This document shows, in pieces, positions 38,542 to 58,474 of a stretch of 64,000 nt of DNA; within the stretch, counting starts at the first letter, position 1, and the number at the start of each line of letters is the position of its first letter. The position numbers were made by a program, and so were the translations under genes. This DNA comes from Treponemataceae bacterium. GTDB lineage: Bacteria; Spirochaetota; Spirochaetia; Treponematales; Rectinemataceae. Location: assembly GCA_963677895.2 (NCBI GenBank), contig CAXXGJ010000006.1, positions 384,001 to 448,000 on the forward strand, given 5' to 3'. Under the pieces are notes generated by a model that did not search any database, was not told the origin of the DNA, and worked only from the letters and a program-made list of their open reading frames with translations.

Positions 38542-40536
38542 TCAGCCCTGGTTGATCCATACGCGCATTTCGTTCCTGCCTCGATTGGCCCAGGCGTAAT
38601 AGGGAATCGCCTTTACCTTGATCGGCCTATAGTCGAAATCGGCTTCCCTATAGAGTTCGTCGCGCCAGCCGCCGTCACTGTCACTGCCGTCACCATTGCC
38701 GCCACCGCTGCAACTGCCGCCGCCGCGGAAAGCTTTTCCCTCGATACAGGTGACGCCGCCGAGCAGGCCCGGTTCGTAGCGGGTCTCGAAATCGGGTTCC
38801 CTGGCGAGCGTGATATCGGAGAGGAGGGGACCGTTGTCAGCTTCCTCGAGGCAGTAGACTTGGGGACCGCGCGTCAGCGCCACCTTGCCGGCGTCTTCGC
38901 GCACGAGCGGGTTGGCCCTTATGCGGCGCACGGACATCGGCAGGTTGAGCTCCACTCGGTCGCCGCGCTTCCACTCGCGGTCTATATTGAGATAGCCGTC
39001 CTCGATGACCATCGGCGCCGCGACGTTTTCGGCGCCCCCCGAAGCAAGGCGGACGATGGGGGACCTTCCGCCGCCGCACCAGCCCGGCACGCGAACCGAA
39101 AGCGTGAAGCGGACGGGCCTCTCCGGCGAAACGGCGATGGACATGCAGCCATCGCGCAGATAGTCGCCTTCCATCGTCACTTCGACAGGGACGCCGCCCA
39201 TCGCGACTTTCGCGCTCGAGGCGATGAAAAGCTGCGCCGCGAGCCGCCTTTCGTCCGCTGAATAGATATATCCGCCTAAAGAGGCTATGAGACGGGCCAG
39301 GTTGGGCGGGCAGCAGGCGCAGGGGAACCAGCCGCGCCGCGTCGCGCCCGAGTATTCGGTGTCCAGCCTCGCTTCAATTTCCTCCGGCACGGCCTCGAGA
39401 AGGTTCGTGTAGAAATAACTCTTGCCGTCCAGCGCGAGGCCGGAGAGAATCCCGTTGTAGAGGGCGCGCTCGGCCACGTCGAAATAATCGCCCTTCAGCT
39501 CGAGCCGGCTCATCCTGGCCGCCCAGAACATGAGCCCGATGGAGGCGCAGGTTTCGTTGTAGGGGGTGCCGTTCGGCAAGTCGTAATCGCGCGAAAAGCC
39601 TTCCCACCATTCCATCTGGCCGATGCCGCCCGTGACGAACATCTGCCGCCTCGTCACGTCTTTCCAAAGCGCCCCGCAAGCGTCCGCCAGCCCCTCGTCG
39701 CCGGAGAGGGCGGCCACGTCAGCCATGCCCGAGTACATGTAGACGGCCCGCACCGCGTGGCCTACCGCCGTTTTCTGTTCGCGCACGGGCAGATGCGACT
39801 GATTGTACTCGTACATCTTAGGACCGAAGGGACCCAGGTTGCCGGGCTCCCCGCGCGCGGCCGCCTCCAGCTCGTAGAAATGCGGCTTCCTGCCGCGCTC
39901 GTCCAGAAAATATTTCGCCAGGCGAAGATAGCCCTCCTCGCCCGTGACTTCGTACAGCTTCGCGAGCGCCATCTCGATCACCTGATGGCCGGGATAGCCG
40001 TGGAGCTGGCCAGGTTCGGGGCCGAACATCGCGTCGATATGGTCGGCGTTCCTTTTCATAATATCGAGGAAACGGCGCTTGCCGGTCGCGCGGAAGTAGG
40101 CGACGGCGGCTTCGATCAAGTGCCCCGCGATATAGAGCTCGTGGCTCTCGCGCTCGTTCGTCCAGCGTTCGCCCTTCTTCGCGAGGGTGAAATAAGTGTT
40201 GAGATAGCCGTCGGGCCACTGCGCCTCGCCTATCGTCTCGATCAGGTCGTCGGCCAGGGCTTCAAGACGCTGGTCCCGCTTCGTCGCCAGGCAGTAGGCG
40301 ACGGCCTCCAGCCATTTCGCCACATCGCTGTCCTGGAAACGCTTGCCGTAGAACTCGCCCGATTCCCTGCCCGCGGCGATCCGGAAGTTGGCGATCGCGT
40401 GGCTTTTGGCCACGCCGGGCACGCGGTCGTTCATGACCTCCCATTGATAGGGAACGATGACGTCGCGAACCAGCTCGATATACCGATTCCAGAAAGCGTC
40501 GGTGACCTTCACCGCTCCGACATCCAAAGGCTTCAT
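38542..40536 (-). CDS. GH127 beta-L-arabinofuranosidase (HypBA1-like), cytoplasmic
   Basis: FQDSDVAKW.EA, HELY.AGH, GHAVRA.Y, EGF..DYDLPN, YNETCAS, CACCPPN, IPYYAWANRG; no signal peptide. Confidence 0.93.
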   Translation of the reverse strand: MKPLDVGAVKVTDAFWNRYIELVRDVIVPYQWEVMNDRVPGVAKSHAIANFRIAAGRESGEFYGKRFQDSDVAKWLEAVAYCLATKRDQRLEALADDLIETIGEAQWPDGYLNTYFTLAKKGERWTNERESHELYIAGHLIEAAVAYFRATGKRRFLDIMKRNADHIDAMFGPEPGQLHGYPGHQVIEMALAKLYEVTGEEGYLRLAKYFLDERGRKPHFYELEAAARGEPGNLGPFGPKMYEYNQSHLPVREQKTAVGHAVRAVYMYSGMADVAALSGDEGLADACGALWKDVTRRQMFVTGGIGQMEWWEGFSRDYDLPNGTPYNETCASIGLMFWAARMSRLELKGDYFDVAERALYNGILSGLALDGKSYFYTNLLEAVPEEIEARLDTEYSGATRRGWFPCACCPPNLARLIASLGGYIYSADERRLAAQLFIASSAKVAMGGVPVEVTMEGDYLRDGCMSIAVSPERPVRFTLSVRVPGWCGGGRSPIVRLASGGAENVAAPMVIEDGYLNIDREWKRGDRVELNLPMSVRRIRANPLVREDAGKVALTRGPQVYCLEEADNGPLLSDITLAREPDFETRYEPGLLGGVTCIEGKAFRGGGSCSGGGNGDGSDSDGGWRDELYREADFDYRPIKVKAIPYYAWANRGRNEMRVWINQG

Positions 40537-40607
40537 GGGCGACCTCCGAATATATAATTACTGTGATATTCAGCTTTTACTATCTTTTTACGACAGCGAA
40601 AATCCGC

Positions 40608-40654
40608 TTGACACCGAATTTCGATGGGGTATTATGCATCTATTGATATATCAG
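40608..40654 (+). promoter_or_regulatory. Sigma70 promoter plus GntR-type operator
   Basis: TTGACA-N16-TATTAT, then TTGATATATCAG at 40643-40654. Confidence 0.7.
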
Positions 40655-40672
40655 ATTTCCCAAGGAGGCACA

Positions 40673-41884
40673 ATGACACGGTTTACAAAAATCGGCGCGA
40701 TTCTGCTCATCGTCGCGCTCTCGCTCGCCGGCCAGGCGGCGTTCGCCCAGGCCAAGTATCATATCGGCGTATGCACCGAGACCGTCTCACAGGCCGAGGA
40801 CGACCTCCGCGGCGCGCAGCAGCTGATCAAGGAATATGGCGCGGTCTCCGACGGCGGCATCATCCAGCATATCACCTACCCCGATGATTTCATGTCCCAG
40901 CAGGAGACGGTCATCTCCAACCTCGTCGCCCTCGCCGATGACCCCCTCATGAAAGCCATCGTCACCTGCAACGCCCTTCCCGGCGTCTCCGAAGCCTACA
41001 AGCGCATCAGGGCGAAACGCCCGGACATCCTCCTTCTCGCCGCCCTGCCCGCCGAGGATCCCCTCGTCATCCAGCAGGCCGCCGACGTGGCCGTCGACCT
41101 CGACTTCGTGTCCCGCGGCTACACGATCGTCTGGGGCGCCAAGCAGATGGGCGCGAAGACCTTCGTGCACATTTCCTTCTCCCGCCATATGTCCTACGAA
41201 TCCCTGGGCCGCCGCAGGGCCATCATGGAACAGGCCTGCAAGGACCTCGGAATAAAGTACGCCTTCGAAACCGCCCCCGACCCGACCTCCGACGTCGGCA
41301 TTCCCGGCGCCCAGCAGTTCATCCTCGAGAAAGTTCCCCAGTGGCTCCAGAAGTACGGCCCCAACGGCGAGAAAGTGGCCATGTTCTGCACCAACGACGC
41401 GCAGACCGAACCGCTCATCAGGCAGCTCATCGCGTCCAAGAACGGCATCTTCGTCGAGCCCGACACCGCCTCTCCCCTCATGGGATTCCCCGGCGCGCTC
41501 GGCCTGGACCTGACCGCGGAAAAAGGCGATTTCCCCGCCATCATGAAGAAGATCGAGAAAGCCGTCGCCGACAAGGGCGCTTCCGGAAGAATGGGAACCT
41601 GGGCATACAGCACCGGTTTCTCCCTGACCGCCGGCATGGGCGAGCACGCCAAGCGCGTTCTCGACGGAAAGTCCAAGATCACCAGCATGAAGGACATCTA
41701 CGACGCCATCGGAAAGTACACGCCCGGAGCCAAATGGAACGGCGCTTTCTATACCGACATGAGCACCGGCGTCAGGGCCAAGAACGAGCTTCTCGTCTAC
41801 ATGGACACCTATGTGTTCGGCAAAGGCTATCTGGGTTCCACGGCGCAGAAGATCGCGGACAAATACTATCGGATAAAGAAATAG
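40673..41884 (+). CDS. DUF3798 periplasmic binding-protein-like protein
   Basis: Signal peptide; HIG..T.TVSQ.EDDLRGA, TFVHISF.RHMSY, APDPTSDVG..GAQQFILE, FCTNDA; AAGGAGG RBS. Confidence 0.85.
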   Translation: MTRFTKIGAILLIVALSLAGQAAFAQAKYHIGVCTETVSQAEDDLRGAQQLIKEYGAVSDGGIIQHITYPDDFMSQQETVISNLVALADDPLMKAIVTCNALPGVSEAYKRIRAKRPDILLLAALPAEDPLVIQQAADVAVDLDFVSRGYTIVWGAKQMGAKTFVHISFSRHMSYESLGRRRAIMEQACKDLGIKYAFETAPDPTSDVGIPGAQQFILEKVPQWLQKYGPNGEKVAMFCTNDAQTEPLIRQLIASKNGIFVEPDTASPLMGFPGALGLDLTAEKGDFPAIMKKIEKAVADKGASGRMGTWAYSTGFSLTAGMGEHAKRVLDGKSKITSMKDIYDAIGKYTPGAKWNGAFYTDMSTGVRAKNELLVYMDTYVFGKGYLGSTAQKIADKYYRIKK

Positions 41885-41921
41885 TCGCCGTCGCGATTGT
41901 TGGCCGATTTTCATGGCCATC

Positions 41922-41996
41922 CGGCCGCGATCCCGCGCGGATCCCAGGCTCCTTCCGGAGCTTCGGCTTCCGGCGGGATCGCGGCCGTTTTCTTTT
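41922..41996 (+). terminator. Intrinsic terminator/attenuator with branched loop
   Basis: Perfect 15-bp stem CGGCCGCGATCCCGC/GCGGGATCGCGGCCG, 36-nt loop with an inner TTCG hairpin, then TTTTCTTTT. Confidence 0.7.
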
Positions 41997-42070
41997 CCCT
42001 TGCGTCGCTTCGGTTTTGCTGGCACCATTGCATCCGACACCGAAGGACATTAACCTTGAGGAAGCTTAGT

Positions 42071-43594
42071 ATGGATAAAAACCATGGACAGAAACAGCCG
42101 CTAGCGGGAGCCGACGCGGGCGCAAACGCGGGCGCGGGAGCCGACGCTTTCGGCATGTTCGACGCGAGCGTTTATATCGACAGGCGGGAAGCCTTGCGGA
42201 CTTCGCTACTTTCGCGAGGCGTTTCCGAGGGCATTGTTCTCTTCCTGGGCAACCGCGAAAGCCCCATGAACTACGCCGACAACGCCTATCCTTTCCGTCA
42301 GGATTCCAGTTTCCTCTACTTTTTCGGCATAGCCCAACCCAGTCTCGCGGCGACCATCGACATCCAGACCGGCCGAACGACCGTTTATGGCGACGATGTT
42401 TCCATGGAGGACATCGTGTGGACGGGACAGGTGCCCGCGGTCGCGGAATTGGCCGCGCGCTCCGGCGTGCGGAATATTGCCCCTCGGGCGGCGCTGGCCG
42501 GAGCCGCGGCCCGCGCGGGCTCCGGTTCCGGTTCGCTATCCGGCTCCGGCGCGGGCCAAGGTCCCGGAGCCGCGAAGCTGCTCTTCCTTCCGCCCTACCG
42601 CGCCGACAGCCGCGCCGAACTCGCCGAGCTTCTCGGGATTTCCCTCCACGAAGTGGATTCCAGGGCATCGCTGCCGCTCATCGTGAGCGCCATAGCCCTG
42701 CGCGAGATAAAACAGGCTCCCGAGATCGTCGAGATTGAACACGCCGTGGCGGTATCGGTGGAAATGCACCGCAGCATCATCGAATGCGCCAAACCGGGCC
42801 TGCGCGAGGCGGAATTAGCCGCCCTGGCTTCGGGGATCGCCCTCGGAAGCGGAGGCAGGCTGGCCTTTCCCACCATCGCGACGACGCGGGGAGCCGTGCT
42901 GCACAATCACGATTACTCGCGCGTCCTCCATGAGGGAGGGCTTTTTCTCGTGGACGCCGGCGCCGAGACCGTCTCGGGATACGCGGGAGACTTGAGTTCG
43001 ACCTTCCCGATCTCGCCGCGCTTTTCGGAGAGGCAGCGCGCGATCTACGAAATCGTCCTCGCCGCGCAGGAAAAGGCCATTTCCCTTCTGAAGCCTGGAA
43101 GGCCTTTCATCGACGCGCATTTCGCGGCGGCGCGTGTCATCGTCGAGGGCCTGAGCGGTCTCGGCCTGATGCGGGGAGATCCCGACGAAGCCGTTCGGCA
43201 GGGCGCGCACGCGATGTTCTTCCCCTGCGGCGTCGGCCACCAGATGGGTCTCGATGTCCACGATATGGAGAATTACGGTGAAGTATGGGTCGGCTACGAT
43301 GGCGCGCCCAAGAGCAAACAGTTTGGCCTCGCTTCCTTAAGGCTCGCGAAACCTCTGCGCGCCGGCATGGTGCACACGGTCGAGCCCGGCATCTATTTCA
43401 TCCCCGAGCTGATCGCCCGATGGAAGGCTGAAAGGAAACTCGAGCGTTTCATCGCCTACGATCGCCTGGACGAGTGGCTCGATTTCGGCGGCATGCGCAA
43501 CGAAGAGGACTGGCTCATCACCGAAGGCGGGGCGAGGCGATTGGGTCCCGAATTCGACAAAAGCGCGGAGGGAATGGAAGCGAGTCGCGGCTAA
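42071..43594 (+). CDS. pepP: Xaa-Pro aminopeptidase (M24B, PepP-like)
   Basis: FRQDSSF.YF.G, LHN, DAGAE..GYAGD, GH.MGLDVHD, TVEPGIY, RNEED. Start could be 42155. Confidence 0.9.
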   Translation: MDKNHGQKQPLAGADAGANAGAGADAFGMFDASVYIDRREALRTSLLSRGVSEGIVLFLGNRESPMNYADNAYPFRQDSSFLYFFGIAQPSLAATIDIQTGRTTVYGDDVSMEDIVWTGQVPAVAELAARSGVRNIAPRAALAGAAARAGSGSGSLSGSGAGQGPGAAKLLFLPPYRADSRAELAELLGISLHEVDSRASLPLIVSAIALREIKQAPEIVEIEHAVAVSVEMHRSIIECAKPGLREAELAALASGIALGSGGRLAFPTIATTRGAVLHNHDYSRVLHEGGLFLVDAGAETVSGYAGDLSSTFPISPRFSERQRAIYEIVLAAQEKAISLLKPGRPFIDAHFAAARVIVEGLSGLGLMRGDPDEAVRQGAHAMFFPCGVGHQMGLDVHDMENYGEVWVGYDGAPKSKQFGLASLRLAKPLRAGMVHTVEPGIYFIPELIARWKAERKLERFIAYDRLDEWLDFGGMRNEEDWLITEGGARRLGPEFDKSAEGMEASRG

Positions 43595-43674
43595 GGTAGA
43601 CTTTACTTATTCAATGGAGCCGCGAAGACCTCTTGTCAAGCGTAAAATTATGGTCTAGAGTGATGAAAGATATT

Positions 43675-43686
43675 CTGATATATCAG
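43675..43686. promoter_or_regulatory. GntR-type operator
   Basis: Perfect palindrome CTGATATATCAG 14 bp upstream of the GntR ATG; 11/12 identical to the site at 40643. Confidence 0.75.
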
Positions 43687-43700: not shown

Positions 43701-44393
43701 ATGAAAACATCCAATCAGCCGCGATACATGTCGCTTCGCGGTCAGGTTTACGATTACCTTCACGACGAACTCATGAAAGGTACGCTGAAGGCCAGTCAAC
43801 GAGTCAATCTGGACGCTTTGGCCGACAGCATCGGCGTGAGCCGAACCCCTCTGCGCGAAGCCTTGATCATCCTGGACGCCGAAGGCTTCGTCACGATTCT
43901 TCCGCGCAGCGGAATCCTCATCAACACCCTCACGCTCGAGGATATCCGGAATCTCTATGAGATTATCGGCGCCCTCGAAGGCGCCGTTCTTTTCGCGGCC
44001 AAGGGCGCCATGAAGACCCCAGCCATCGATCGAATGGCCATACTCAACGGCGATATGTCGCTCGCCCTCGATACCGAAGACTTCGACGGTTTTTATCGCC
44101 TCAACCTCGAATTTCATGGGGTATTCCTGTCATTTTCCAAGAATCCCGCGCTTTTGCGCAGCATCGATCTCGCCAAGCGGCGTCTCTACGATTTTCCGAA
44201 GAAGAAGGGTCTCCTGACCGAATGGGAGAGGGCTTCAATCCTGGAACACGCCCGGATCGTGGATTTTCTGAAAATGGGGGACTTTCGCGCCGCGGCCGAG
44301 TATGTCCGCGACATACATTGGTCCTTCGAGGTCCAGGAGCATTTTATCCAACGATACTACGAGCTCCCCGGCCAGTTGCCTCGAGCCCAGTAA
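43701..44393 (+). CDS. GntR-family transcriptional regulator (FCD)
   Basis: GVSRTPLREAL..L.AEG, N..FH, EH..I. Confidence 0.93.
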   Translation: MKTSNQPRYMSLRGQVYDYLHDELMKGTLKASQRVNLDALADSIGVSRTPLREALIILDAEGFVTILPRSGILINTLTLEDIRNLYEIIGALEGAVLFAAKGAMKTPAIDRMAILNGDMSLALDTEDFDGFYRLNLEFHGVFLSFSKNPALLRSIDLAKRRLYDFPKKKGLLTEWERASILEHARIVDFLKMGDFRAAAEYVRDIHWSFEVQEHFIQRYYELPGQLPRAQ

Positions 44394-44403: not shown

Positions 44404-45363
44404 GTGTATATCCAGGGAACAGTCTTCAATGTCGCCCGCTTCTCCCTCCACGACGGGCCGGGTATACGCACGGTCGTATTCCTGAAAGGCTGTCCCCTGT
44501 CCTGCGCCTGGTGCCACAATCCCGAGGGAATGAGCGCGAGACCTGAGGTTTTCTTTCGCCCCGACAAATGCGTGGCCTGCGGACGCTGCGCGGCGGTTTG
44601 CCCGAGACTGGCGGCGGCAACGGCAGCGCCTGCCGCGACTGCTGCCGCTGCCGCTGCCGCTGCCAAGACGGCTCCCTTCCCCGACGAAGCCTGCCCCCCT
44701 GGCTGCCAGGTCTGCGCCGGCGCCTGCCTCGTGGGCGCGCGGGAGGCGGTGGGGACCATCTGGGATCTGCCGAAGCTTCTGGACCTGGTCCTGGCCGACC
44801 GCGCCTTCTATGAATCCTCCGGCGGCGGTGTGACGCTCTCGGGCGGCGAGCCTCTGACGCAGTCCCGCTTCGCCACGGCCTTTCTGGAAACCTGTGGCCG
44901 GGCCGGCCTTCACCGAGCCGTCGAAACCTCGGGTTTCGCCCCAGAGCGGGTCTTTCTCGATCTGGCTGAGCAGGCCGATCTTCTTCTCTACGACATAAAA
45001 CTGATGGATCCCGACGCGCACAAGGCATGGACCGGCGTCGACAACGCCCTGATATTGAACAACCTGAGGGCCGCCACCCAAGTGGCCGCCACAAAGGTAG
45101 CCGGCAAGGAGATTCGCATCCGCCGGCCCATGATCCCCGGCGTCAACGACGGCGTGGATGAAATGCGCGCCCTGGCCGCTCTCGCCCTCGAACTCAGGTT
45201 GGGCGTCGACTTGCTTCCCTATCACGCCGACGCCGAAGACAAGTACCTGAAGCGGCGAAAACCGTACCGGCTCGCGGGAATGGCGGCGCCCGAAGCCTCT
45301 AGCGTCGCTGAATGCGCGAAAATTTTGTCCGGCCTGGGCGTCCAGGCGCGGATTGGAGGATGA
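44404..45363 (+). CDS. Glycyl-radical enzyme activating enzyme (radical SAM with ferredoxin insert)
   Basis: HDGPGIRTVVFLKGCPLSCAWCHNPE, CVACGRCAAVCP, GGVTLSGGEP; GTG start. Confidence 0.95.
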   Translation: MYIQGTVFNVARFSLHDGPGIRTVVFLKGCPLSCAWCHNPEGMSARPEVFFRPDKCVACGRCAAVCPRLAAATAAPAATAAAAAAAAKTAPFPDEACPPGCQVCAGACLVGAREAVGTIWDLPKLLDLVLADRAFYESSGGGVTLSGGEPLTQSRFATAFLETCGRAGLHRAVETSGFAPERVFLDLAEQADLLLYDIKLMDPDAHKAWTGVDNALILNNLRAATQVAATKVAGKEIRIRRPMIPGVNDGVDEMRALAALALELRLGVDLLPYHADAEDKYLKRRKPYRLAGMAAPEASSVAECAKILSGLGVQARIGG

Positions 45364-45364
45364 G

Positions 45365-47785
45365 ATGAACGAGCGGATTGCGCGGCTGAGGAAGCGAAGC
45401 TTCGATGCGAAACCCCGGATTTCCATCGAAAGGGCCTTGATCCTCACCGCCTTCTATAAGGAAAACGCCGGCAAGTTCTCGGCTCCCCTGCTGCGCGCCA
45501 TGGCTTTCCGCGAGCTCTGCGAAAAGAAAACCATCTATATCGGCGCCGACGAACTCATCGTGGGCGAGCGCGGTCCAGAGCCCAAGGCCGTATCGACCTT
45601 TCCCGAACTCACCTGCCACTCCAGCGAGGACCTTCGGATCCTCAATTCCAGGCCGATGACGAGCTATTCGATAGGGGAAGCCGAGATCGAAACCTACGCC
45701 CGCGAGGTGGAGCCGTACTGGCGGGGCCGCTGCGTGCGCGACCGCGCCTTCGCCGACATGCCCGCCGAATGGAGGGGGCTCTACGAAGCCGGCGTATTCA
45801 CCGAGTTCATGGAGCAGCGGGCGGCGGGACACACCGCCTTGGACGGCGCCATCTACGCCAAAGGTCTGGACGACTATCGCGCCGAGATAGCCGAGGCGCG
45901 GGCCGCCATCGACTGGAGCGGCGATCCGGAAGCTTACGACAAGAACGAGGAGCTCACCGCCATGGATATCGCCTGCCAAGCGGCGATCATCTTCGCGCGC
46001 AGGCACGCCAGGCTCGCCGAATCCATGGCCGCGGCCGAAACCGATCCAGCCCGCCGCAAGGAGCTGCTAGCCATCGCGGCTATCTGCAACAGGATACCGG
46101 CCAAGGCACCCGAAACCTTCCATGAAGCGGTGCAGACCTACTGGTTCACCCATCTCGGCACCATCACCGAACTCAACGGCTGGGACTCGATGAGCCCCGG
46201 CCACTTCGACCGCCATCTCGAGCCTTTCTACCGGCGAGATCTGGCCGCCGGCAGGATCGACGCCGAAAGGGCGAAGGAGATCCTCGCCTGCTTCTGCGTC
46301 AAGGTGAACAATACGCCCGCCCCGCCCAAGGTGGGCGTGACGGCGGCCGAGAGCGGCACCTACAACGACTTCACGCAGATCAGCCTGGGTGGCGTGGACC
46401 GCGACGGCGAAGACGCTTCCGGCGCCGTGTCGGCGCTGCTCCTCCAGAGCCTCGACGAACTCCACCTCCTCCAGCCCCAGCCTTCCGTCCACGTGTCGAC
46501 GAAGACGGCCCAGCCCTTCCTGAAGTTAGCCGCCGAGGTGGCGCGGAAGGGGGCCGGCTACCCCAGCTTCTTCAACGCCGACCTCATCGTCCGCGAACAG
46601 CTGCGCGCAGGAAAATCCCTCGAGGACGCCCGGGAGGGCGGCACCTCGGGCTGCGTCGAGACGGGCTGTTTCGGCAAGGAAGCCTACATCCTCCACGGCT
46701 ACCTCAACGTGCCCAAGATCCTCGAACTGGCGATGAACGACGGCGTCGATCCCTTGAGCGAAAAGCGCGTCGGGCCGGCCACCGGCCGCGCCGAATCCTT
46801 CGGCGATTTCGAGGCCCTCTACGCCGCCTTCGAGACCCAGCTGCGCTACGCTGTGGACTGGAAGATCCGCGTGGACAACAAGCTCGCCCGGATCTACGCC
46901 GAGAACGTGCCCGCGCCCTATCTCTCCGTCCTTATCGCCGACTGTGTCAGGAACGGCCGCGACTACTACTCGGGCGGCGCGCGCTACAACACGGACTATA
47001 TCCAGTGCTGCGGTATCGGAACGATCGCGGACAGCCTCTCGGCGATCAGGATGATGGTGTATCGTGATCCCTCGCACCGCGAGGGATCACGCGGCGAGGG
47101 CGCGCCTGATATAGGAGCGCGCGGCAAAGGAAGCATCTCCATGAAGGAGCTGATGGCCGCCCTCGCCGCCGACTGGCAGGGCTATGAAGCGCTGCGCGAG
47201 ACGATATGGAACAGCGTTCCTTTTTATGGAAACGACGACGACAGGGCTGACGATCTGATGAGGCGCGTATTCGCCTCGGAGCTGGCGGCGATCGAGGGCA
47301 AGTCGAGCACGCGCGGCCCCACCTATCGCGTGAACATGCTCTCCACCACCTGCCATATCTACTTCGGGACCAAGCTGGGAGCCACGCCCAACGGCCGCCG
47401 CGCCCATACGCCTGAATCAGACGGCTCATCTCCCTCGCAGGGGGCGGACAGGAAGGGTCCCACGGCGGTGATGAAATCGGTGGCCAAGATGGATCAGGTG
47501 AGGACGAGCGGAACCCTTCTGAACCAGCGTTTCCTGCCCTCGACGCTTGCCGGTAATCGCGGCGTCGACGCCCTGGCGGGCCTCGTGCGGGGCTACTTCG
47601 CCCTCGACGGCCACCACGTGCAGTTCAATGTCGTCGACACGGCCACACTCAGGAAGGCGCAGGCTCACCCGGGTGAGTATCGCAACCTTCTCGTGCGCGT
47701 GGCCGGCTACAGCGACTATTTCGTCGATCTCGACCTGCGCCACCAGGAGGAGATCATCGCGCGCACGGCGCAGGAAGGGATCTGA
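45365..47785 (+). CDS. hypD: Glycyl radical enzyme, trans-4-hydroxy-L-proline dehydratase
   Basis: VRVAGYS Gly loop, SGCVE Cys loop, plus HypD-type motifs FTEFMEQRA.GHT, ELN.WD, PAPPKVG.T..ES.TY.DF, TGCFGKEAY.L.GY, ML.TTCHIYFG (compared from memory with C. difficile HypD). Confidence 0.9.
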   Translation: MNERIARLRKRSFDAKPRISIERALILTAFYKENAGKFSAPLLRAMAFRELCEKKTIYIGADELIVGERGPEPKAVSTFPELTCHSSEDLRILNSRPMTSYSIGEAEIETYAREVEPYWRGRCVRDRAFADMPAEWRGLYEAGVFTEFMEQRAAGHTALDGAIYAKGLDDYRAEIAEARAAIDWSGDPEAYDKNEELTAMDIACQAAIIFARRHARLAESMAAAETDPARRKELLAIAAICNRIPAKAPETFHEAVQTYWFTHLGTITELNGWDSMSPGHFDRHLEPFYRRDLAAGRIDAERAKEILACFCVKVNNTPAPPKVGVTAAESGTYNDFTQISLGGVDRDGEDASGAVSALLLQSLDELHLLQPQPSVHVSTKTAQPFLKLAAEVARKGAGYPSFFNADLIVREQLRAGKSLEDAREGGTSGCVETGCFGKEAYILHGYLNVPKILELAMNDGVDPLSEKRVGPATGRAESFGDFEALYAAFETQLRYAVDWKIRVDNKLARIYAENVPAPYLSVLIADCVRNGRDYYSGGARYNTDYIQCCGIGTIADSLSAIRMMVYRDPSHREGSRGEGAPDIGARGKGSISMKELMAALAADWQGYEALRETIWNSVPFYGNDDDRADDLMRRVFASELAAIEGKSSTRGPTYRVNMLSTTCHIYFGTKLGATPNGRRAHTPESDGSSPSQGADRKGPTAVMKSVAKMDQVRTSGTLLNQRFLPSTLAGNRGVDALAGLVRGYFALDGHHVQFNVVDTATLRKAQAHPGEYRNLLVRVAGYSDYFVDLDLRHQEEIIARTAQEGI

Positions 47786-48562: not shown

Positions 48563-48593
48563 GACATTCCTTTGTATTAGGGCAAAATTTGAC

Positions 48594-48640
48594 GCGTGAA
48601 CGTTCACATCGATTGTAAATGGCGCCTTTTCGGCTGTCAA
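48594..48640 (-). promoter_or_regulatory. araD promoter with LacI-type operator
   Basis: Minus strand TTGACA-N17-TACAAT; palindrome GCGTGAACGTTCACAT at 48594-48609. Confidence 0.8.
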
Positions 48641-48716: not shown

Positions 48717-48771
48717 TTGACAAAAAGTGAAAGGCCTGCTAGCATTGTTTTTGTAGCGTGTACGTTAACGC
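48717..48771 (+). promoter_or_regulatory. Transporter operon promoter with LacI-type operator
   Basis: TTGACA-N17-TAGCAT; GCGTGTACGTTAACGC at 48756-48771. Confidence 0.8.
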
Positions 48772-48822
48772 ATCTATTGTCATACCGAATTTTCTGCCAC
48801 TTTCGAGCACAGGAGCGTGGAA

Positions 48823-49545: not shown

Positions 49546-50523
49546 ATGAAAAACTGGAAAAAAGTCCTAGTACTGTTGCCGGCGATGCTGTTGATCTTCT
49601 CCGCATCGGCCTTCGCGGCTCCGCCCAAGACATGGGTCGTCGGTTTCGCCCAGATCGGCTCCGAGAGCGAGTGGAGAACCGCCGATACGATCTCGGTGCA
49701 GAATGCCTTCAACGAGGATGAGAGCTTCATCCTGATCTATTCCGATGCCCAGCAGAAGCAGGAGAACCAGATCAAGGCGCTGCGCTCCTTCATCGCGAGA
49801 AAGGTGGACTGCATCGTGTTCACCGCCCTCGTGGAGACCGGCTACGGCCCCGTGCTTCAGGAAGCGAAGCGCGCCGGCATCCCCGTCATCATGATCGACC
49901 GCGACGTCCAGGAATCCGACAGGTCCCTGAGGCTCACGATCATGGGATCCAACTTCATCACGGAAGGCGAGAAAGCGGGCAACTGGCTCGCCGCCTACCT
50001 CAAGCAGAAGGGCTTGGACGACGGCAAGAAACCGATCAATATCGTGGAACTCCAGGGCACGACGGGCTCCGCCCCTGCCATCGAAAGGAAGACCGGCTTC
50101 GCGAACATCATGAAGCAGCATTCCAACTGGCAGCTCACCCGCTCCCAGACGGGCAACTTCACGAGCTCCGAGGGCAAGGCCGTCATGGAAGCCTTCCTGA
50201 AGGCCGACAAGACGATCCAGGTCCTCTATGCCCATAACGACCAGATGGCCTTAGGCGCCATTCAGGCCATCAAGGAAGCCGGACTGAAGCCGGGCAAGGA
50301 TATCATCATCATCGGCGTGGACGCCGTCAAAGGCGCTTTCGAGGCCATCGTGGCGGGCGAGATGAACTGCACGGTCGAGTGCAGCCCATTGCTCGGACCT
50401 CAGGCTGTACAGGCCGTGACCGACCTGCGTGACGGGAAGAAACTCCCGGCCCGCATCTACACGATCGAAGGTCTCTTCGACGAGACCAACGCCGCGGCGG
50501 CCCTGCCGTCCAGGCAGTACTGA
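49546..50523 (+). CDS. Monosaccharide ABC transporter substrate-binding protein (YtfQ-like)
   Basis: VGFAQIGSESEWR, DAQQKQENQIKALRSFIA, ELQGTTGS, HND.MA.GA, ECSPLLGP. Confidence 0.92.
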   Translation: MKNWKKVLVLLPAMLLIFSASAFAAPPKTWVVGFAQIGSESEWRTADTISVQNAFNEDESFILIYSDAQQKQENQIKALRSFIARKVDCIVFTALVETGYGPVLQEAKRAGIPVIMIDRDVQESDRSLRLTIMGSNFITEGEKAGNWLAAYLKQKGLDDGKKPINIVELQGTTGSAPAIERKTGFANIMKQHSNWQLTRSQTGNFTSSEGKAVMEAFLKADKTIQVLYAHNDQMALGAIQAIKEAGLKPGKDIIIIGVDAVKGAFEAIVAGEMNCTVECSPLLGPQAVQAVTDLRDGKKLPARIYTIEGLFDETNAAAALPSRQY

Positions 50524-50562
50524 CCTGCGTATTGATTTAGCGATGTATCGATAGTATATCCT

Positions 50563-50616
50563 GAAGGGACAAGGTTGCCTCTCGCCGCAAGGGCGATGAG
50601 GAGGCTTTGTCCCTTC
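50563..50616 (+). terminator. Stem-loop after the binding-protein gene
   Basis: GAAGGGACAA...TTGTCCCTTC enclosing an inner TCGCC-GCAAG-GGCGA hairpin. Confidence 0.6.
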
Positions 50617-50648
50617 GTTTGCGGACTGTTTCAGCGGGAGGCATCCAA

Positions 50649-52211
50649 ATGTCCGACAACGCCCCAATCGTCGAGTTGAAGACGATAAGCAAAACTTTTC
50701 CTGGCGTGAGGGCTTTGTCCAGCGTGGATTTTCGCCTTTTCCCGGGCGAAGTCCATGCCCTCATGGGGCAAAACGGAGCGGGCAAATCCACCCTGGTAAA
50801 GGTGCTCACCGGCGTGTATCGCCAGGATTCAGGAGAGATTCTCCTCGAAGGCAAGCCGATAAGGCCGGATTCGCCCCTCGCCGCCCAAAGACTGGGAATC
50901 AACACCGTCTATCAGGAAATCAACCTCTGCCTCAATCTCTCGGTGGCTGAAAACATCTTCATCGGCAGGGAGCCGAAGCGCCTAGGCAGGATCGACTGGA
51001 AGACCATGAACGGAAAAGCCGTGGAAGTCCTGAAGCGGCTCAACATCGGCATCGACGTGACGAAGATTCTGTCTTCCTATTCGATCGCCGTGCAGCAGAT
51101 GGTGGCCATTTCCCGCGTCCTCGATTCGTCCTCCAAGGTTCTCATCCTCGACGAGCCCACGTCGAGCCTCGACGAGACCGAAGTCGCCCAACTTTTTAAG
51201 GTTATAAAGAAGTTGCGCGACGAAGGAATGGCCATCCTTTTCATCACGCACTTCCTGGACCAGACGTACCAGATTTCCGACAGGATCACCGTGCTGAAGA
51301 ACGGCGAATTCGTGGGGGAATACGAGACGGGGAACCTGCCCAAACTGGAGCTGATCGCCAAGATGCTCGGCAAGGAACTCTCCGAATTCAGCTATACGAC
51401 GAGCGGCGCGCGGGAGAAGAAACACGGGACCGCCGACGATACGGCCGCCGAGGATACGGCCGCCGACGATACGGCTGCCGGGACGACGCCCCTTCTCGAG
51501 GCGAAGAGTCTCGGCCTGCGCGGCTCGATCGCCCCCTTCGACATCGCGCTTCGCGAGGGCGACGTGCTTGGTTTCGCGGGGCTCCTGGGCTCGGGGAGGA
51601 CGGAGACGGCGAGACTTCTCTTCGGCATCGACGCCGCCGATCAGGGCGACTTGGCCGTGAAAGGGAAGAAAGCCGGCATCAGCTCGCCGAGGGGCGCGAT
51701 GATGGCCGGCATGGGCTTCTGCTCCGAGGATAGGAAGAACGAGGGGATTTTCGCCGAACTCTCTATACGGGAGAACATCATCCTCGCGCTCCAGGCGAAG
51801 ATGGGCGCGTCGAAATACCTTTCGACGAAAAAGCAGCTGGAGATCGCCGAGGAGCTCATAGCGTCGCTGAGAATCGTCACGCCGAGCGCCAACGGCGAGG
51901 CCAAGCAGCTCTCCGGCGGCAATCAGCAGAAACTGCTGCTGGCTCGCTGGCTCTGCACCAATCCCATAATCCTCATCCTCGACGAGCCCACCCGCGGTAT
52001 CGACGTGGGCGCGAAACTCGAAATCATGGAGCAGATACTCAACCTGAGCAGAAAAGGCCTTGGGGTCATCTTCATCTCGTCGGAATTCGAGGAAGTGCTG
52101 CGCTGCAGCACGAAAATTGCCGTTTTCAGGGACAAGGTGAAGATCGCGGAACTCGAGGGAGAGGACATGAACGAGAGGACCATCATGCAGACTATCGCGG
52201 GAGGCAGATGA
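50649..52211 (+). CDS. Monosaccharide ABC transporter ATP-binding protein (double ABC, YtfR-like)
   Basis: GQNGAGKST, LDEPT twice, LSGGNQQK. Confidence 0.95.
   Translation: MSDNAPIVELKTISKTFPGVRALSSVDFRLFPGEVHALMGQNGAGKSTLVKVLTGVYRQDSGEILLEGKPIRPDSPLAAQRLGINTVYQEINLCLNLSVAENIFIGREPKRLGRIDWKTMNGKAVEVLKRLNIGIDVTKILSSYSIAVQQMVAISRVLDSSSKVLILDEPTSSLDETEVAQLFKVIKKLRDEGMAILFITHFLDQTYQISDRITVLKNGEFVGEYETGNLPKLELIAKMLGKELSEFSYTTSGAREKKHGTADDTAAEDTAADDTAAGTTPLLEAKSLGLRGSIAPFDIALREGDVLGFAGLLGSGRTETARLLFGIDAADQGDLAVKGKKAGISSPRGAMMAGMGFCSEDRKNEGIFAELSIRENIILALQAKMGASKYLSTKKQLEIAEELIASLRIVTPSANGEAKQLSGGNQQKLLLARWLCTNPIILILDEPTRGIDVGAKLEIMEQILNLSRKGLGVIFISSEFEEVLRCSTKIAVFRDKVKIAELEGEDMNERTIMQTIAGGR
51430..51480 (+). 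repeat. 15-bp coding tandem repeat in the ABC linker
   Basis: ACGGCCGCCGA(C/G)GAT, about 3.4 copies, encoding TADD-TAAED-TAADD-TAAG. Confidence 0.9.
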
Positions 52212-53236
52212 ACATGGCGTGGCTGAATACCCTGACGCGCAGGAAAATCTTCTGGCCGCTGGTCGCCCTCGCCTTCCTTCTCGCCTTCAATCTATTCTTC
52301 ACCCCCAACTTCTTCAGCGTCGAGATAAAACAGGGCCACCTCTACGGCAATGTCATCGACATCCTGAAGAACGGCGCGCCGATCATGCTTCTGGCCGTCG
52401 GCTTGACCCTCGTCATAGCGACGAAGGGCATCGACATCTCGGTGGGATCGGTGGTGGCCATTTCGGCGGGCGTCGTGGCCATGCTGATAGGCGGCGACCT
52501 CAAGGGCAACCCCAAGTATCCCATCGCCTTCGCGATGTCGGCAGCCGTGCTCGTGTCGATCGCCGCGGGGATGTGGAACGGCATGCTCGTCTCCTGGGTG
52601 GGGATGCAGCCGATCATCGCGACCCTGATCCTCTCCGTGGCGGGGCGCGGCATCGCGATGGTCACCACCAACGCCATGGTCGTCTGGCTCTACGCCAAAC
52701 CCTTCGCCCTCCTCGGACAGGGCTACCTGCTGGGTCTGCCCTTTTCGATCTATATGGTGGCCGTCCTTCTTTTGATGACATGGCTGGCCACGCGGCGGAC
52801 CGCCCTCGGCCTCTTCATCGAGGCTGTGGGCATCAACCCGACCGCCTCGCGCTTCGCGGGCATCAACGCGAAAAACCTCATCTTCTGGGTCTACGCCTTT
52901 TCGGGCTTCTGCGCGGGCGTATCGGGCCTCGTCGTCTGCTCGACCGTGATGAGTGCCGACGGGAACAACGCCGGCCTCGGCTACGAGATGGACGCGATAC
53001 TGGCCGTCGTCATAGGCGGAACCTCCATGAACGGGGGGAAATTCTATCTTTTCGGCTCCATGGTAGGCGCGCTGATCGTCCAGACCCTGACGACGACCAT
53101 CTACGCCTTCAACGTTCCGCCCGAGATAGCACAGGTGGTGAAGGCTCTCGTCGTGTGGACTGTCAGCCTCCTTCAGTCGGCCACCTTCCGCGCCAAGGTC
53201 GCCAGCCTCTTCGGCAAGAGGGAGGTGGCGGCATGA
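52208..53236 (+). CDS. Monosaccharide ABC transporter permease (YtfT-like)
   Basis: GIDISVG, QPIIATL, GRGIA, E.DAILAVVIGGT. Confidence 0.93.
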   Translation: MNMAWLNTLTRRKIFWPLVALAFLLAFNLFFTPNFFSVEIKQGHLYGNVIDILKNGAPIMLLAVGLTLVIATKGIDISVGSVVAISAGVVAMLIGGDLKGNPKYPIAFAMSAAVLVSIAAGMWNGMLVSWVGMQPIIATLILSVAGRGIAMVTTNAMVVWLYAKPFALLGQGYLLGLPFSIYMVAVLLLMTWLATRRTALGLFIEAVGINPTASRFAGINAKNLIFWVYAFSGFCAGVSGLVVCSTVMSADGNNAGLGYEMDAILAVVIGGTSMNGGKFYLFGSMVGALIVQTLTTTIYAFNVPPEIAQVVKALVVWTVSLLQSATFRAKVASLFGKREVAA

Positions 53237-54231
53237 AGCTGAAATCCATATTCAGCCCGAAAAACCTGCCCACTATCGTGACCCTCGGCCTTTTCATCCT
53301 CATGTTCGGCCTGGGGTCGGTCTCCTTCAGAGGCTTCTTTTCCCTTCAGAATTTCCTCAACCTCTTCATCGACAACGCCTACCTCATCATCATCGCCGTG
53401 GGGATGACCTTCGTCATCATCTCGGGGGGCATCGACCTTTCGGTCGGTTCCATGCTCGCCCTCTCCACGATGGTGACGTCGAGCCTCCTGGAAAAATCCC
53501 GCTGGGATCCCCTCTACGTCATCCCCGTCGTCCTCTTGATGGGCGTGGCGCTGGGGCTCTTCATGGGCTGGCTCATCCAGACCTTCGACATACCGCCCTT
53601 CATCATCACGCTGGCGGGGCTCTACCTCGCCAGAGGGCTCTGCTACGTGGTAAGCATAGACACGATCGGTATCACCCACCCCTTCTGGCAGGCCATGGCG
53701 AGCTCCGCGATCCCGATCGCGGGGAACAGCTTCATCTCGCCGAGCGTGATCATCGCCGTCGTCATCCTGATAGCGGGAATGTACGTTTCGCGCTTCACCA
53801 AGTTCGGGCGGACGGTCTTCGCCATAGGCGGAAACGAGCAATCGGCCGTGCTGATGGGCCTGCCGGTGGCGCGGACGAAAATCCTACTCTACGCATTCTC
53901 GGGCTTCTGCTCGGCGCTGGCGGGCATCGTCTTCACCTTCTATACGCTCTCTGGCTACGCCCTGAACGGAAGAGGCATGGAAATGGACGCGATCGCGACG
54001 GTGGTGATAGGCGGAACCCTTCTCTCCGGTGGCGTGGGAAGCGTCTTGGGCACCCTTTTCGGCGTCTTTGTCTACGGGACGATCCAGGTGCTGATCGTCT
54101 TCCAGGGAACGCTCAACTCCTGGTGGACGCGCATCGCGATCGGTTTCCTGGTATTCGTTTTCTGCCTGCTGCAGAGGCTGTTTGAGGTGAGGAAGGGGGG
54201 CAAGCGGCGGAAGAGTTCCGCCGCCGCCTGA
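53233..54231 (+). CDS. Monosaccharide ABC transporter permease (YjfF-like)
   Basis: ATG overlaps the previous stop (ATGA); GGIDLSVG, FIITLAG, AIGGNE.SA.LMGL, LNSWW. Confidence 0.93.
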   Translation: MKLKSIFSPKNLPTIVTLGLFILMFGLGSVSFRGFFSLQNFLNLFIDNAYLIIIAVGMTFVIISGGIDLSVGSMLALSTMVTSSLLEKSRWDPLYVIPVVLLMGVALGLFMGWLIQTFDIPPFIITLAGLYLARGLCYVVSIDTIGITHPFWQAMASSAIPIAGNSFISPSVIIAVVILIAGMYVSRFTKFGRTVFAIGGNEQSAVLMGLPVARTKILLYAFSGFCSALAGIVFTFYTLSGYALNGRGMEMDAIATVVIGGTLLSGGVGSVLGTLFGVFVYGTIQVLIVFQGTLNSWWTRIAIGFLVFVFCLLQRLFEVRKGGKRRKSSAAA

Positions 54232-54243
54232 TGAATTATTATC

Positions 54244-57383: not shown

Positions 57384-57400
57384 TGCTCAACCTCCATTCA

Positions 57401-58474
57401 TCAGGGAAGATTTTCCCTCACGTATATATCGATAGGTACGATGATTTCCTTTTCGATGGCCTGCTGAAGCACCACATGGCTGTACAGCAGGTAGATGCCT
57501 TCGTATGCCTGATATTCAGGCCGCTGCGAGAGGATGCAGTCGATCGTACCGGCCCGCAGCTGGCTCTCGTTGTCCGGCACCAGATCGTAGCCGACCACCG
57601 CGATGTGCTCGCCTCCTTTGTCGTTGACAAAGGAGGCGACGCCGTGTACAGAAGCGTTTGTGACAAAGATGCCGCCGGGAGCCGGTATTTCCGCGAGCAG
57701 CTTCTGAAGAAAAGCCTCGCAGGTCGCCTTGTGCTCGATGTCGCGGCATTCGAAGATACGGATCTGGCGCGCCAACCCTGGCGCGGCGGCGCCCGGGTTG
57801 GCCGGCGGAACCACGCTCGCACCCAGCGAGTCGAAATAATGCAGGAATCCGTCGATTCTTTTTCTGATATGGAAATCTTCGCTGTGGGCGCTCACGACGC
57901 AAAAGGGACCCTCTCCCGCCGAGAAGGCGTCCAGAAGGCGGCCGGCCAGCACCCCGCTCTGGAACGCGTTCTGTCCGATTCTGGACAGGGGCGGAAAGTC
58001 GGGAAGCTGGGCATCGAAGAACACGACGGGGAATTCCGCCGGCATGGTTTTGAGCAGGAGGGAGCTCAGCTCGGGCTGAACCGGCGCCATGAGAAGCCCG
58101 TCGAAATGCCCGTCTTCCAGCTGCCGGCGAATGTTCTCAAATAATGGAAGAGGATCGTAGCGGTTGAATTCGATCTTTCGGATGTCCACGCCGAAGGTCT
58201 TCAGCTCCTTGGCCGCTTTCTGTATTCCCGCGTACGCGATTTTCCAATAACCGGAGTCATCGGTCGTGTTCGGCAGGAGGGCGGCGAAGGTATATTTCTT
58301 GTTGAGCTTGAGGTGACGCGCGATGGGGTTGGGCTTGTAGCCATGCTGCTCGATGAGAAATTCGATTTTAGCCTTGGTTTCCGGAGACACTCTCCCCCGA
58401 TTGTGCAGAACCCTGTCCACCGTTCCGATCGAGACATGGGCCGCTTCGGCTATTTCGCGCAGTGTCATTGGCAT
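57401..58474 (-). CDS. LacI-family transcriptional regulator (probable ara repressor)
   Basis: TLREIAEAAHVSIGTVDRVLHNRG HTH plus sugar-binding domain; first gene of the lacI-araB-araA run. Confidence 0.93.
   Translation of the reverse strand: MPMTLREIAEAAHVSIGTVDRVLHNRGRVSPETKAKIEFLIEQHGYKPNPIARHLKLNKKYTFAALLPNTTDDSGYWKIAYAGIQKAAKELKTFGVDIRKIEFNRYDPLPLFENIRRQLEDGHFDGLLMAPVQPELSSLLLKTMPAEFPVVFFDAQLPDFPPLSRIGQNAFQSGVLAGRLLDAFSAGEGPFCVVSAHSEDFHIRKRIDGFLHYFDSLGASVVPPANPGAAAPGLARQIRIFECRDIEHKATCEAFLQKLLAEIPAPGGIFVTNASVHGVASFVNDKGGEHIAVVGYDLVPDNESQLRAGTIDCILSQRPEYQAYEGIYLLYSHVVLQQAIEKEIIVPIDIYVRENLP

Follow-up and report, generated by a model that had tools for sequence, protein, structure and literature searches.

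Separate hydroxyproline and arabinose modules beside a GH127 gene in one Rectinemataceae genus: a possible locus for arabinosyl-hydroxyproline

The hypBA cluster of Bifidobacterium longum consists of the GH127 enzyme HypBA1, the GH121 enzyme HypBA2, the GH43 enzyme HypAA and a beta-Ara2 ABC transporter. It recovers the sugar, and the parts of its description drawn on here name neither a peptidase nor HypD. In the aerobic plant bacterium Xanthomonas euvesicatoria (XeHypBA1/BA2/AA), XeHypBA1 is a GH146-type enzyme that prefers Ara-Hyp, the cluster has a prolyl-oligopeptidase gene as its neighbour, and no HypD is named. Clostridioides difficile carries a hypD-activase-proC cluster. HRGPs have already been proposed as a source of both sugar and Hyp for HypD bacteria, with no locus named in the sections of that paper used here; the same sections call it an open challenge to find the enzymes by which Hyp is released from plant glycoproteins or collagen and made available to HypD anaerobes (PMC6219649). 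The locus described below lies in a stretch of 64,000 nucleotides, hereafter the window (Table 1). Compared with hypBA it is of a different type, having no linked GH121, GH43 or oligosaccharide ABC importer within the locus, and having a prolidase and HypD. With the C. difficile cluster it shares an activase and a HypD with all catalytic residues, but it has no linked proC; its additions are a prolidase, a DUF3798 protein and a regulator of the GntR type that comes with a palindromic operator.

Table 1. Features of the locus, in window positions.
Feature	Position	Strand	Basis or remark
GH127 beta-L-arabinofuranosidase	38542..40536	-	Pfam PF07944/20736/20737
Divergent intergenic region, 136 bp	40537..40672	.	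ORF layout
Sigma-70-like promoter TTGACA-16-TATTAT, facing DUF3798	40608..40635	+	
GntR-type operator TGATATATCA, predicted; between -10 box and DUF3798 ribosome site	40644..40653	.	
DUF3798 substrate-binding-type protein, own permeases absent	40673..41884	+	Pfam PF12683; PDB 3qi7
Terminator-like hairpin with U tract	41922..41996	+	-58 kcal/mol, z -6.96
Prolidase-type M24 peptidase	42071..43594	+	Start 42071 or 42155; Arg398 equivalent at 43340-43342
GntR-type operator TGATATATCA, predicted; upstream of gntR-activase-hypD	43676..43685	.	
GntR/FCD regulator, predicted Hyp-gene repressor	43701..44393	+	Pfam
Glycyl-radical activating enzyme	44404..45363	+	TIGR02494 above cut-off; NF043069 278 bits, cut-off 425
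HypD, trans-4-hydroxy-L-proline dehydratase	45353..47785	+	NF043068 1077.5 bits; PDB 6vxc E 8e-265
araD, convergent with hypD	47852..48640, likely start 48562	-	NF006047 above cut-off
LacI-type operator at araD promoter, predicted	48594..48607	.	
LacI-type operator upstream of 216-aa gene and ytfQRTF, predicted	48756..48769	.	
216-aa protein, signal-peptide-like N-terminus, family-less	48817..49467	+	
YtfQ/YtfR/YtfT/YjfF-like monosaccharide ABC transporter, four genes	49546..54231	+	Best NCBIfam models
araB and araA	54244..57383	-	NF003154 and NF002795 above cut-off
LacI-family regulator, predicted arabinose repressor	57401..58474	-	Pfam
LacI-type operator upstream of lacI-araB-araA, predicted	58505..58518	.	

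The gene order is common to all three genomes of the genus as one contiguous 20-kb block, with local differences: in G001 the ara part is interrupted by 6.7 kb inserted between yjfF and araA, and araD is absent from the corresponding position in G002. Mean column identity of the 136-bp intergenic region was 97% over four sequences of the genus or genus-like. The original prediction, in which GH127 shares this gap with a DUF3798-peptidase-gntR-activase-hypD series, was confirmed in both genes and order. It had araD, the transporter, araA and araB following directly; all of these are present, but it is the minus strand that carries araD and lacI-araB-araA, and an additional gene, encoding the 216-aa protein and absent from the earlier list, heads the transporter operon. 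No Pfam or NCBIfam match was found for this protein, and its nearest Atlas clusters are nameless and mostly from Spirochaetota. With araD and hypD facing each other tail-to-tail, a common transcript of hypD and the ara genes is excluded. The YtfQ, YtfR, YtfT and YjfF models score best for the four transporter genes, the cut-off being reached by YjfF only. The strong terminator-like hairpin separates DUF3798 from the peptidase gene. A PL9-like lyase and a GH50-like hydrolase border the locus; fadR, a 170-aa protein and the PL9-like lyase are found on the other side of GH127.

Two palindromic operators divide the locus into Hyp genes and ara genes, which do not form one regulon. TGATATATCA occurs twice in the window, upstream of DUF3798 and upstream of gntR. 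This gntR was linked to hypD in 23 of 80 hypD loci; within 200 nt before gntR the exact motif was present in 16 and a relaxed form in 22 of these 23, and the exact motif was found in 0/57 hypD loci without this gntR. The DUF3798 site, which was outside the training set, was the second-best matrix match genome-wide, and the same site precedes an 87% identical DUF3798 orthologue in a second genus (G019). The hydroxyproline-dipeptide regulon, under predicted GntR control, is regarded as solid and is apparently undescribed. The LacI palindrome is found at three ara promoters (araD, ytfQRTF and lacI-araB-araA), conserved in G001, G002, G005 and G019, and the ara genes make up an ordinary arabinose regulon under predicted LacI control. 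An earlier candidate for the LacI motif, TGNAACGTTNCA, matched no better than chance and was discarded for this palindrome. The start of GH127 itself has neither operator, the GntR site in the gap being located on the DUF3798 side of the DUF3798 -10 box. A single co-regulated locus, as originally proposed, with one operator common to the glycosidase, Hyp and ara genes, was not what was found, since each module has its own operator.

All ten HypD residues looked for are kept, namely H160, D278, S334, D339, F340, C434, E436, Y450, T666 (=T645) and G785 (=G765, which we take to be the HypD numbering). The score on NF043068 was slightly below the cut-off of 1100 bits and the next family reached 588 bits; the structure PDB 6vxc was matched with E 8e-265. 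The earlier identification as HypD is borne out by its active-site residues, as far as sequence can tell. Catalytic roles of most of these residues are described in the sections of PMC7077986 used here. Within the locus no P5C enzyme was found; proC and two P5C-dehydrogenase-like genes are located on other contigs of the genome. Proline racemase gave no match, and a search with PF09338 (proline reductase) was blank, but equally blank in all controls.

The M24 peptidase had been called aminopeptidase P. Human prolidase matches better (E 5e-50) than E. coli aminopeptidase P (E 3e-38), and the peptidase keeps the M24B metal ligands and the loop Arg (human R398, PepQ R370), known as the dipeptide-selecting residue (PMC4213023). 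By its 153 bits on the PepP model PRK10879 (cut-off 465) and its loop Arg it falls outside PepP; on the prolidase model PRK13607 (cut-off 339), a model of the E. coli type, it reached 134 bits. The protein is, judged from these features, a prolidase-type Xaa-Pro/Xaa-Hyp dipeptidase. In common with human PEPD and E. coli PepQ it has the metal ligands, His255, His377, Trp107 and the loop Arg398/Arg370; unlike them, it is a second, accessory copy within a Hyp regulon, and its Xaa-Hyp activity is a prediction. The linkage of the peptidase to hypD recurs elsewhere, with a prolidase adjoining hypD in 10 of the 80 loci (eight Bacteroidota, one Gemmatimonadota and one of the window genus), in three phyla. 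Prolidases linked to DUF3798 or GH127 fall on one side of a tree branch, with weak support (61/87). The DUF3798 protein is a predicted binder of Hyp or of Xaa-Hyp/Pro dipeptides, because of the TGATATATCA operator upstream; on contig C12 a paralogue is the first gene of an ABC operon. None of three papers mentioning DUF3798 dealt with its ligand, judged by title or start of the abstract. We consider it highly probable that the DUF3798 protein, prolidase, activase and HypD form a Hyp module under predicted GntR control.

The GH127 protein has all three Pfam domains, the Cys3-Glu zinc site, the Cys nucleophile, the Glu acid/base and the Araf-binding residues H142/Y145/H194/R273 of HypBA1. Residues H132, Y135, H184, R263, E312, E328, C330, C408 and C409 correspond to H142, Y145, H194, R273, E322, E338, C340, C417 and C418 of HypBA1, to which overall identity is 40%, with a different acid/base loop. 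The closest solved structure is Ara127N of Geobacillus stearothermophilus (PDB 4QJY; E 4.7e-230, 54% identity, TM 0.93), an enzyme presumably located in an arabinan cluster. Compared with Ara127N and the AraR-type arabino-oligosaccharide cassettes, the loop reads GQMEWWEGFS against GSxxxGExFT, and neither GH51 nor an oligosaccharide transporter is linked. The enzyme belongs to a Rectinemataceae subclade with the loop GQxxxWEGFS (clade support 100). As the clade-mates in G006, G023 and G071 share this odd loop, it is not an adaptation to Hyp; their genes belong to sugar ABC cassettes, two of which include AraC and one GH31. The possibility raised earlier of an aceric acid hydrolase was tested and ruled out: the score on NF049879 (BT1003 type) was 452 bits against a cut-off of 950, and BT1003 matches far more weakly than Ara127N. 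No signal peptide was seen on GH127. Neither a further PF07944 gene (GH146) nor a set of exported enzymes for cleaving extensin was linked to the locus. Proximity of GH127 to araBAD is ordinary, other Rectinemataceae carrying AraR-ABC-GH127 cassettes with GH51.

The hypD survey covered 80 GTDB loci, none from Firmicutes, and in 39 of them each flank measured 5 kb or more. GH127 was found within 10 kb of hypD in a single locus, from the same genus as the window. In the converse survey of 80 GH127 loci, only 34 of which reach 10 kb, HypD was found in none and prolidase in one (a 91%-identical contig). A glycyl-radical enzyme fragment near GH127 in locus L208 (35% identity over 117 residues) was not counted as HypD. 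Only one Rectinemataceae genus shows GH127 and hypD in tight adjacency. In the 94% complete genome G005, HypD is 93% identical and tail-to-tail with araDAB, and no GH127 match was found; hypD adjoins ara in G017 also, without a linked GH127. GH127 cassettes were located 8-35 kb from hypD in G075, G073, G006, G011 and G004, belonging to another subclade and the AraR-ABC-GH51 type, with an RRM-rny-ymdB housekeeping block in between in four of the five; they reflect shared synteny and are weak evidence at most. A regulator first called ROK was instead a GntR-HTH plus LacI-effector (AraR-type) protein. Among 50 further hypD genomes, 27 had GH127/GH146, within 20 kb of hypD only in G362, which is about the chance expectation for 112 genes in 27 genomes by a hand estimate.

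The GH127 of G019 is the sister of the window enzyme (weak support, 81). It lies beside ytfQRTF, directly upstream of a same-strand prolidase and 14 kb from the operator-bearing DUF3798 orthologue, so that two genera retain GH127 close to a prolidase, with differing orientations. In parts, the region is made up of shuffled 84-91% copies of window-genus genes, and the assembly may therefore be chimeric there; the GH127-prolidase pair has only 69-73% DNA identity. The ORF after this prolidase had no Pfam or PDB match, and its galM label was dropped.

In Bacteroidales, G200 carries GH127-SusC-SusD-lipoprotein-DUF6055-P5C dehydrogenase-M64-prolidase-hypD on one strand, the front part of which was found again in G373. 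G209, of the same genus, carries GH127-GH51-CotH-M61-GH27-DPP-IV-P5C dehydrogenase-zinc peptidase-prolidase-hypD; its enzymes would make an extensin-matched set acting on beta-Araf, alpha-Araf, alpha-Gal and Xaa-Pro/Hyp bonds. The two GH127s belong to different subclades. A GH127 match was found in 12/12 hypD genomes of this genus against 32/139 without hypD, counts that include non-independent kin. Same-type hypD loci in the Bacteroidales G304, G247 and G203 have no GH127. Absence of the adjacency in relatives had been named as grounds for abandoning the original prediction, and here the outcome was mixed: one locus in 80 and a G005 without GH127, yet recurrence in Bacteroidales, where the joining of GH127 to prolidase-hypD gives the concept outside support.

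The reading we prefer, at about even odds, is that the GntR Hyp-dipeptide module and the LacI arabinose module are both fed by the adjoining GH127, acting on imported arabinosyl-hydroxyproline scraps. Other microbes would free small Araf-Hyp or Xaa-Hyp(Araf) fragments, and these would be imported, the DUF3798 protein perhaps borrowing the permeases of its paralogue. A cytoplasmic GH127 would take off Araf, by known family chemistry on a presumed substrate, and the prolidase, whose family chemistry is also known and whose Arg398 motif is present, would free Hyp. HypD, with its residues in place, would turn Hyp into P5C. From P5C, ProC would make proline or P5C dehydrogenase would make glutamate; the genes for both lie outside the locus. 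The arabinose regulon would be induced by arabinose itself, which would then pass through AraA, AraB and AraD, the modules being induced separately by one inducer each. It is possible, if just short of an even prospect, that the locus is a spirochaete member of a group of undescribed anaerobic glycopeptide loci, in which GH127/GH146, proline-directed peptidases, prolidase and HypD ferment both halves of arabinosyl-hydroxyproline, with G200 and G209 as SusC/SusD-type members, TGATATATCA and GntR as an unreported hypD regulon and a Hyp-related ligand for a DUF3798 subgroup. The hypD-adjacent prolidase of three phyla, the GntR operator defining a hypD regulon, the DUF3798 protein and the Bacteroidales runs are all assayable candidates. 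If the GH127 link is true, anaerobes of sediments, digesters and herbivore guts draw Hyp from plant cell-wall protein as well as from collagen.

That GH127 links the two modules through arabinosyl-hydroxyproline is itself a claim that could fall either way. A quite conceivable, though somewhat less probable, alternative is that chance alone put these genes side by side in a catabolic island, with the Hyp module serving collagen or algal Xaa-Hyp dipeptides and free Hyp, and GH127 belonging with the pectin genes and trimming beta-Araf from scraps of pectic arabinan, rhamnogalacturonan or xyloglucan. The separate operators, the relatives in which hypD adjoins ara but no GH127 is linked, the kinship with Ara127N and the sugar ABC cassettes of the clade-mates all agree with this, as do the flanking PL9-like lyase and GH50-like hydrolase; beta-Araf also caps arabinan and RG-II, according to the sections of PMC10850190 used here. 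Accident accounts less well for the GH127-prolidase pair in two genera in different orientations, for the recruitment of two GH127 subclades to Bacteroidales prolidase-hypD runs, one with GH51, GH27 and DPP-IV, and for a source genome whose arabinan kit is thin, with one GH43 (on contig C2) and no GH51 match to open arabinan.

Linkage through arabinosyl-hydroxyproline does not need the single inducing signal for GH127, Hyp and ara genes that was first proposed. Such a co-induced HRGP regulon would suit the contiguous block in all three genomes and the GntR operator in the common gap, 108 bp from the GH127 start, but is improbable given two unrelated operators, each limited to its own module, ara genes convergent with hypD and an ara part that is split in G001. 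It is more improbable still that GH127 is stranded, having lost an AraC activator and ABC importer and being barely expressed, so that only the flanking modules work. No consensus promoter facing GH127 was found, the AraC of the clade-mates had no match in the source genome (G000), and the dN/dS of GH127 was the highest of seven genes tested. However, its value of 0.17-0.18 indicates purifying selection, and the reading frame and catalytic set are intact in all three genomes of the genus.

Every gene named in the original prediction was found at its place in the window, and the 136 bp between GH127 and the DUF3798 gene was confirmed as the distance between their start codons. GH127 (-) is followed by DUF3798, the peptidase gene, gntR, the activase gene and hypD (+), araD (-), a 216-aa gene and ytfQRTF (+), and araA, araB and lacI (-); hypD and araD are convergent, tail-to-tail. 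The block is located on contig C6 of a 3.5 Mb genome bin (93% complete, 5.5% contaminated), presumably of an anaerobic Rectinemataceae spirochaete, and is also present in both other genomes of the genus, with a 6.7-kb insertion ahead of araA in G001 and with araD absent at this position in G002. The genes are real and form two regulons, not the single co-regulated locus proposed: the Hyp and ara genes carry unrelated palindromes, and a motif and promoter scan of the GH127 start revealed neither palindrome and no consensus promoter. Among the neighbouring features, the GH50/ABC transporter block was found in G002, with proB-proA in its place in G001. The 170-aa protein before the lyase presumably resembles a pectin-binding module, and the nearest Atlas clusters of the 216-aa family are unnamed spirochaete proteins.

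Features of the window and gene runs of other loci
Feature	Position	Strand	Remarks
TctA-like tripartite transporter gene	window 32519-34001	+	Two frames here; frameshift or assembly error
PL9-like pectate lyase, long N-terminal region	window 34364-37562	-	Preceded by 170-aa protein without Pfam family
fadR-like regulator	window 37697-38417	-	After GH127; one-base insertion here, intact in G001, G005 and locus L155; preceded by conserved GTAAGACATC motif
216-aa family	window 48817-49467		Within arabinose regulon; also precedes ytfQ in G019
GH50 (agarase-like) hydrolase and own sugar ABC transporter	window 58618-63997	-	Directly upstream of lacI
G200 run (Bacteroidales)	L236:822-19459	one strand	GH127-SusC-SusD-lipoprotein-DUF6055-P5C dehydrogenase-M64-prolidase-hypD-activase
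G209 run (Bacteroidales)	L241:2742-18747		GH127, GH51, CotH-like lipoprotein, M61, GH27, DPP-IV, P5C dehydrogenase, zinc peptidase, prolidase, hypD
Run without GH127, genus of G200	L242, L243, L246, L248, L256		SusC-SusD-lipoprotein-DUF6055 (HEXXH motif)-P5C dehydrogenase-zinc peptidase-prolidase-hypD; parts on shorter contigs
Bacteroidota hypD locus	L079:416-8895		Prolidase, proline racemase, ornithine-cyclodeaminase-like gene and a POT peptide transporter oriented divergently to hypD

Regulation through putative GntR and LacI palindromes is the main new result of the analysis. Two copies of the palindrome TGATATATCA are present in the window, at 40644 and 43676. This gntR was present in 23 of the best 80 GTDB hypD loci; the exact palindrome lay within 200 nt upstream in 16 of the 23 and a relaxed form in 22, the remaining locus beginning at a contig end, and none of the 57 loci without this gntR had an exact copy. 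An operator matrix trained on 31 gntR sites, with the window gntR site included and the DUF3798 site excluded, gave the two window sites the top two ranks genome-wide, and detected no site in the 136-bp gap besides that at 40644. The latter is situated downstream of the -10 box of DUF3798 and ahead of its ribosome site, which is where a repressor of this gene would act. In other Rectinemataceae, the DUF3798 gene of G019 (87% identical, about 440 kb from hypD) carries the exact palindrome and that of G023 one with a single mismatch; such a site was absent from that of G006. A second, unrelated palindrome, GCGTG(A/T)ACGTT(A/C)(A/C)C, marks the araD, transporter and lacI-araB-araA promoters, and is kept in G001, G002, G019 and the close relative G005. 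From position and conservation, GntR and LacI are predicted to bind their respective palindromes. A Hyp regulon with operator, prolidase and DUF3798 is well supported and apparently undescribed so far: among the matches listed by full-text literature searches, which took in few subscription journals and no supplements, there was no account of such a locus or regulon, and no paper was, by title, about the operator string. A divergent AraC gene stands beside three clade-mates of the window GH127; this AraC had no match in the window's genome.

The window HypD scored 1077.5 bits against NF043068 (cut-off 1100) and matched C. difficile HypD with an E value of 8e-265. Residues H160, D278, S334, D339, F340, C434, E436 and Y450 and the equivalents of T645 and G765, with catalytic or substrate-binding roles (PMC7077986), are kept. 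The presumed aminopeptidase P, 'PepP', is of prolidase type by sequence: its match to human prolidase is stronger than that to E. coli aminopeptidase P, and one of its arginines aligns with human R398. Its scores are below the NCBIfam cut-offs of both models. A loop arginine of the R398 type holds the carboxylate of the dipeptide and shuts out longer peptides (PMC4213023), and prolidase acts on dipeptides with a C-terminal Pro or Hyp (PMC8438212). The gene is a second copy in its genome, with matches of E 1e-80 or better in 63 of 69 family genomes, and a prolidase gene adjoins hypD in 10 of the best 80 loci (Bacteroidota 8, Gemmatimonadota 1, window's genus 1). GH127 is nearest to Geobacillus Ara127N, followed by HypBA1; assignment as an aceric acid hydrolase can be discarded, the score being far under that cut-off. 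By sequence comparison, the HypBA1 residues that coordinate zinc, act as nucleophile or acid/base, or bind Araf (PMC10850190, PMC8106489) are retained, and no signal peptide was seen at the N-terminus. The dN/dS ratio was 0.17-0.18 against G001 and G002. In the tree, 8 of the 41 rows form a Rectinemataceae subclade with support 100 that includes the enzyme and is marked by a distinct loop ahead of the acid/base glutamate.

The expected linkage of GH127 to hypD held in the window's genus and in the Bacteroidales G200 and G209, and failed in G005 and most of the best 80 of 572 hypD loci (10-kb range, no Firmicutes, 5 kb on both sides in 39). GH127 was within 10 kb of hypD in one of these 80 and araA/araB in two, all close kin of the window. 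The 93%-identical HypD gene of G005 adjoins araD-araA-araB, and no GH127 match was found in that genome. Among 80 metagenome GH127 loci, 34 of them reaching 10 kb, HypD was found in none, DUF3798 with prolidase in one (91% identical, same order) and sugar ABC permeases in 26-30. Counted by eye, 38 of the 69 Rectinemataceae genomes have hypD, 19 GH127 and 18 both, on one contig in 9 of the 18; the distance is about 5 kb in the three genomes of the window's genus, about 450 kb in G019, and 8-35 kb in five genomes whose GH127 belongs to another subclade. Fifty further hypD genomes of the 80 were searched (the others being 9 Synergistota, 12 family members or other spirochaete short contigs, 4 short contigs and 5 Bacteroidales searched separately). 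GH127/GH146 was present in 27, on the hypD contig only in G362 (14 kb; GH146 type, separated from hypD by a prolidase, galM and an M1 peptidase) and G364 (56 kb); a hand estimate puts the chance expectation for closed genomes at roughly one case of this kind. In G019, whose assembly may be partly chimeric, a prolidase gene comes immediately after the GH127 that groups, with weak support, as sister to that of the window; ytfQRTF, lacI and the DUF3798 gene with its operator are nearby.

An arabinosyl-Hyp link is plausible in the window, its chances being about even, and is more convincing in the Bacteroidales loci. GH127 was present in each of five Bacteroidales genomes with prolidase-hypD that were searched, and in one of the five, G200, it shares a run with them. 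The G200 run exceeds the reach of the 10-kb survey, which missed its GH127; in 151 genomes of its genus, GH127 matched in 12 of 12 with hypD versus 32 of 139 without, these being kin. The enzyme set of G209 fits the extensin bonds beta-Araf, alpha-Araf, Xaa-Pro/Hyp and alpha-Gal-Ser, the last a known linkage of extensin. G373 (L262) has a further such run, in which the front part of that of G200 recurs. The GH127s of G200 and G209 are in different subclades, so that their joining to HypD looks like two recruitments. G304, G247 and G203, of G200's genus, have the same SusC/D-peptidase-prolidase-hypD run with GH127 absent, and the conserved GH127-less run is a candidate locus for the use of collagen or Hyp peptides. 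The G200, G209 and G373 runs are candidate extensin glycopeptide utilisation loci and stronger cases than the window. HRGPs have been suggested as a source of sugar as well as amino acids for HypD-bearing Bacteroidetes, the Hyp-releasing enzymes being called unidentified (PMC6219649), and Hyp use has been tied to collagen (PMC13450708). No paper combining extensin, PUL, GH127 and peptidase was found by full-text search.

The window locus most likely has a scavenger's layout. No exported HRGP enzymes were found linked to it, and in the genome PF07944 is represented by a single gene, GH43 by one, and GH51 had no match; the organism would therefore take small fragments made by others. Prolidase would cut Xaa-Hyp dipeptides and HypD dehydrate the Hyp, P5C passing to ProC or P5C dehydrogenase, encoded on other contigs; no proline racemase match was found in the genome. 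Arabinose would be handled by the separately induced regulon. GH127 might supply both modules from Araf-Hyp, which we regard as an even bet.

The third-best GntR-operator-like site of the genome (C6:253433, score 20.1) lies 95 nt before a 327-aa ORF. In some spirochaete loci (L035, L037, L038, L061, L077) hypD directly follows gntR; no activase match was found in the last four, and an M20 peptidase with DUF5058 is upstream in four of the five. Between its araA and ytf transporter genes, G019 (L122, L144) has an array of alpha/beta-hydrolase-like paralogues, about nine genes of 630-650 aa, and a LacI-operator variant precedes some of them.
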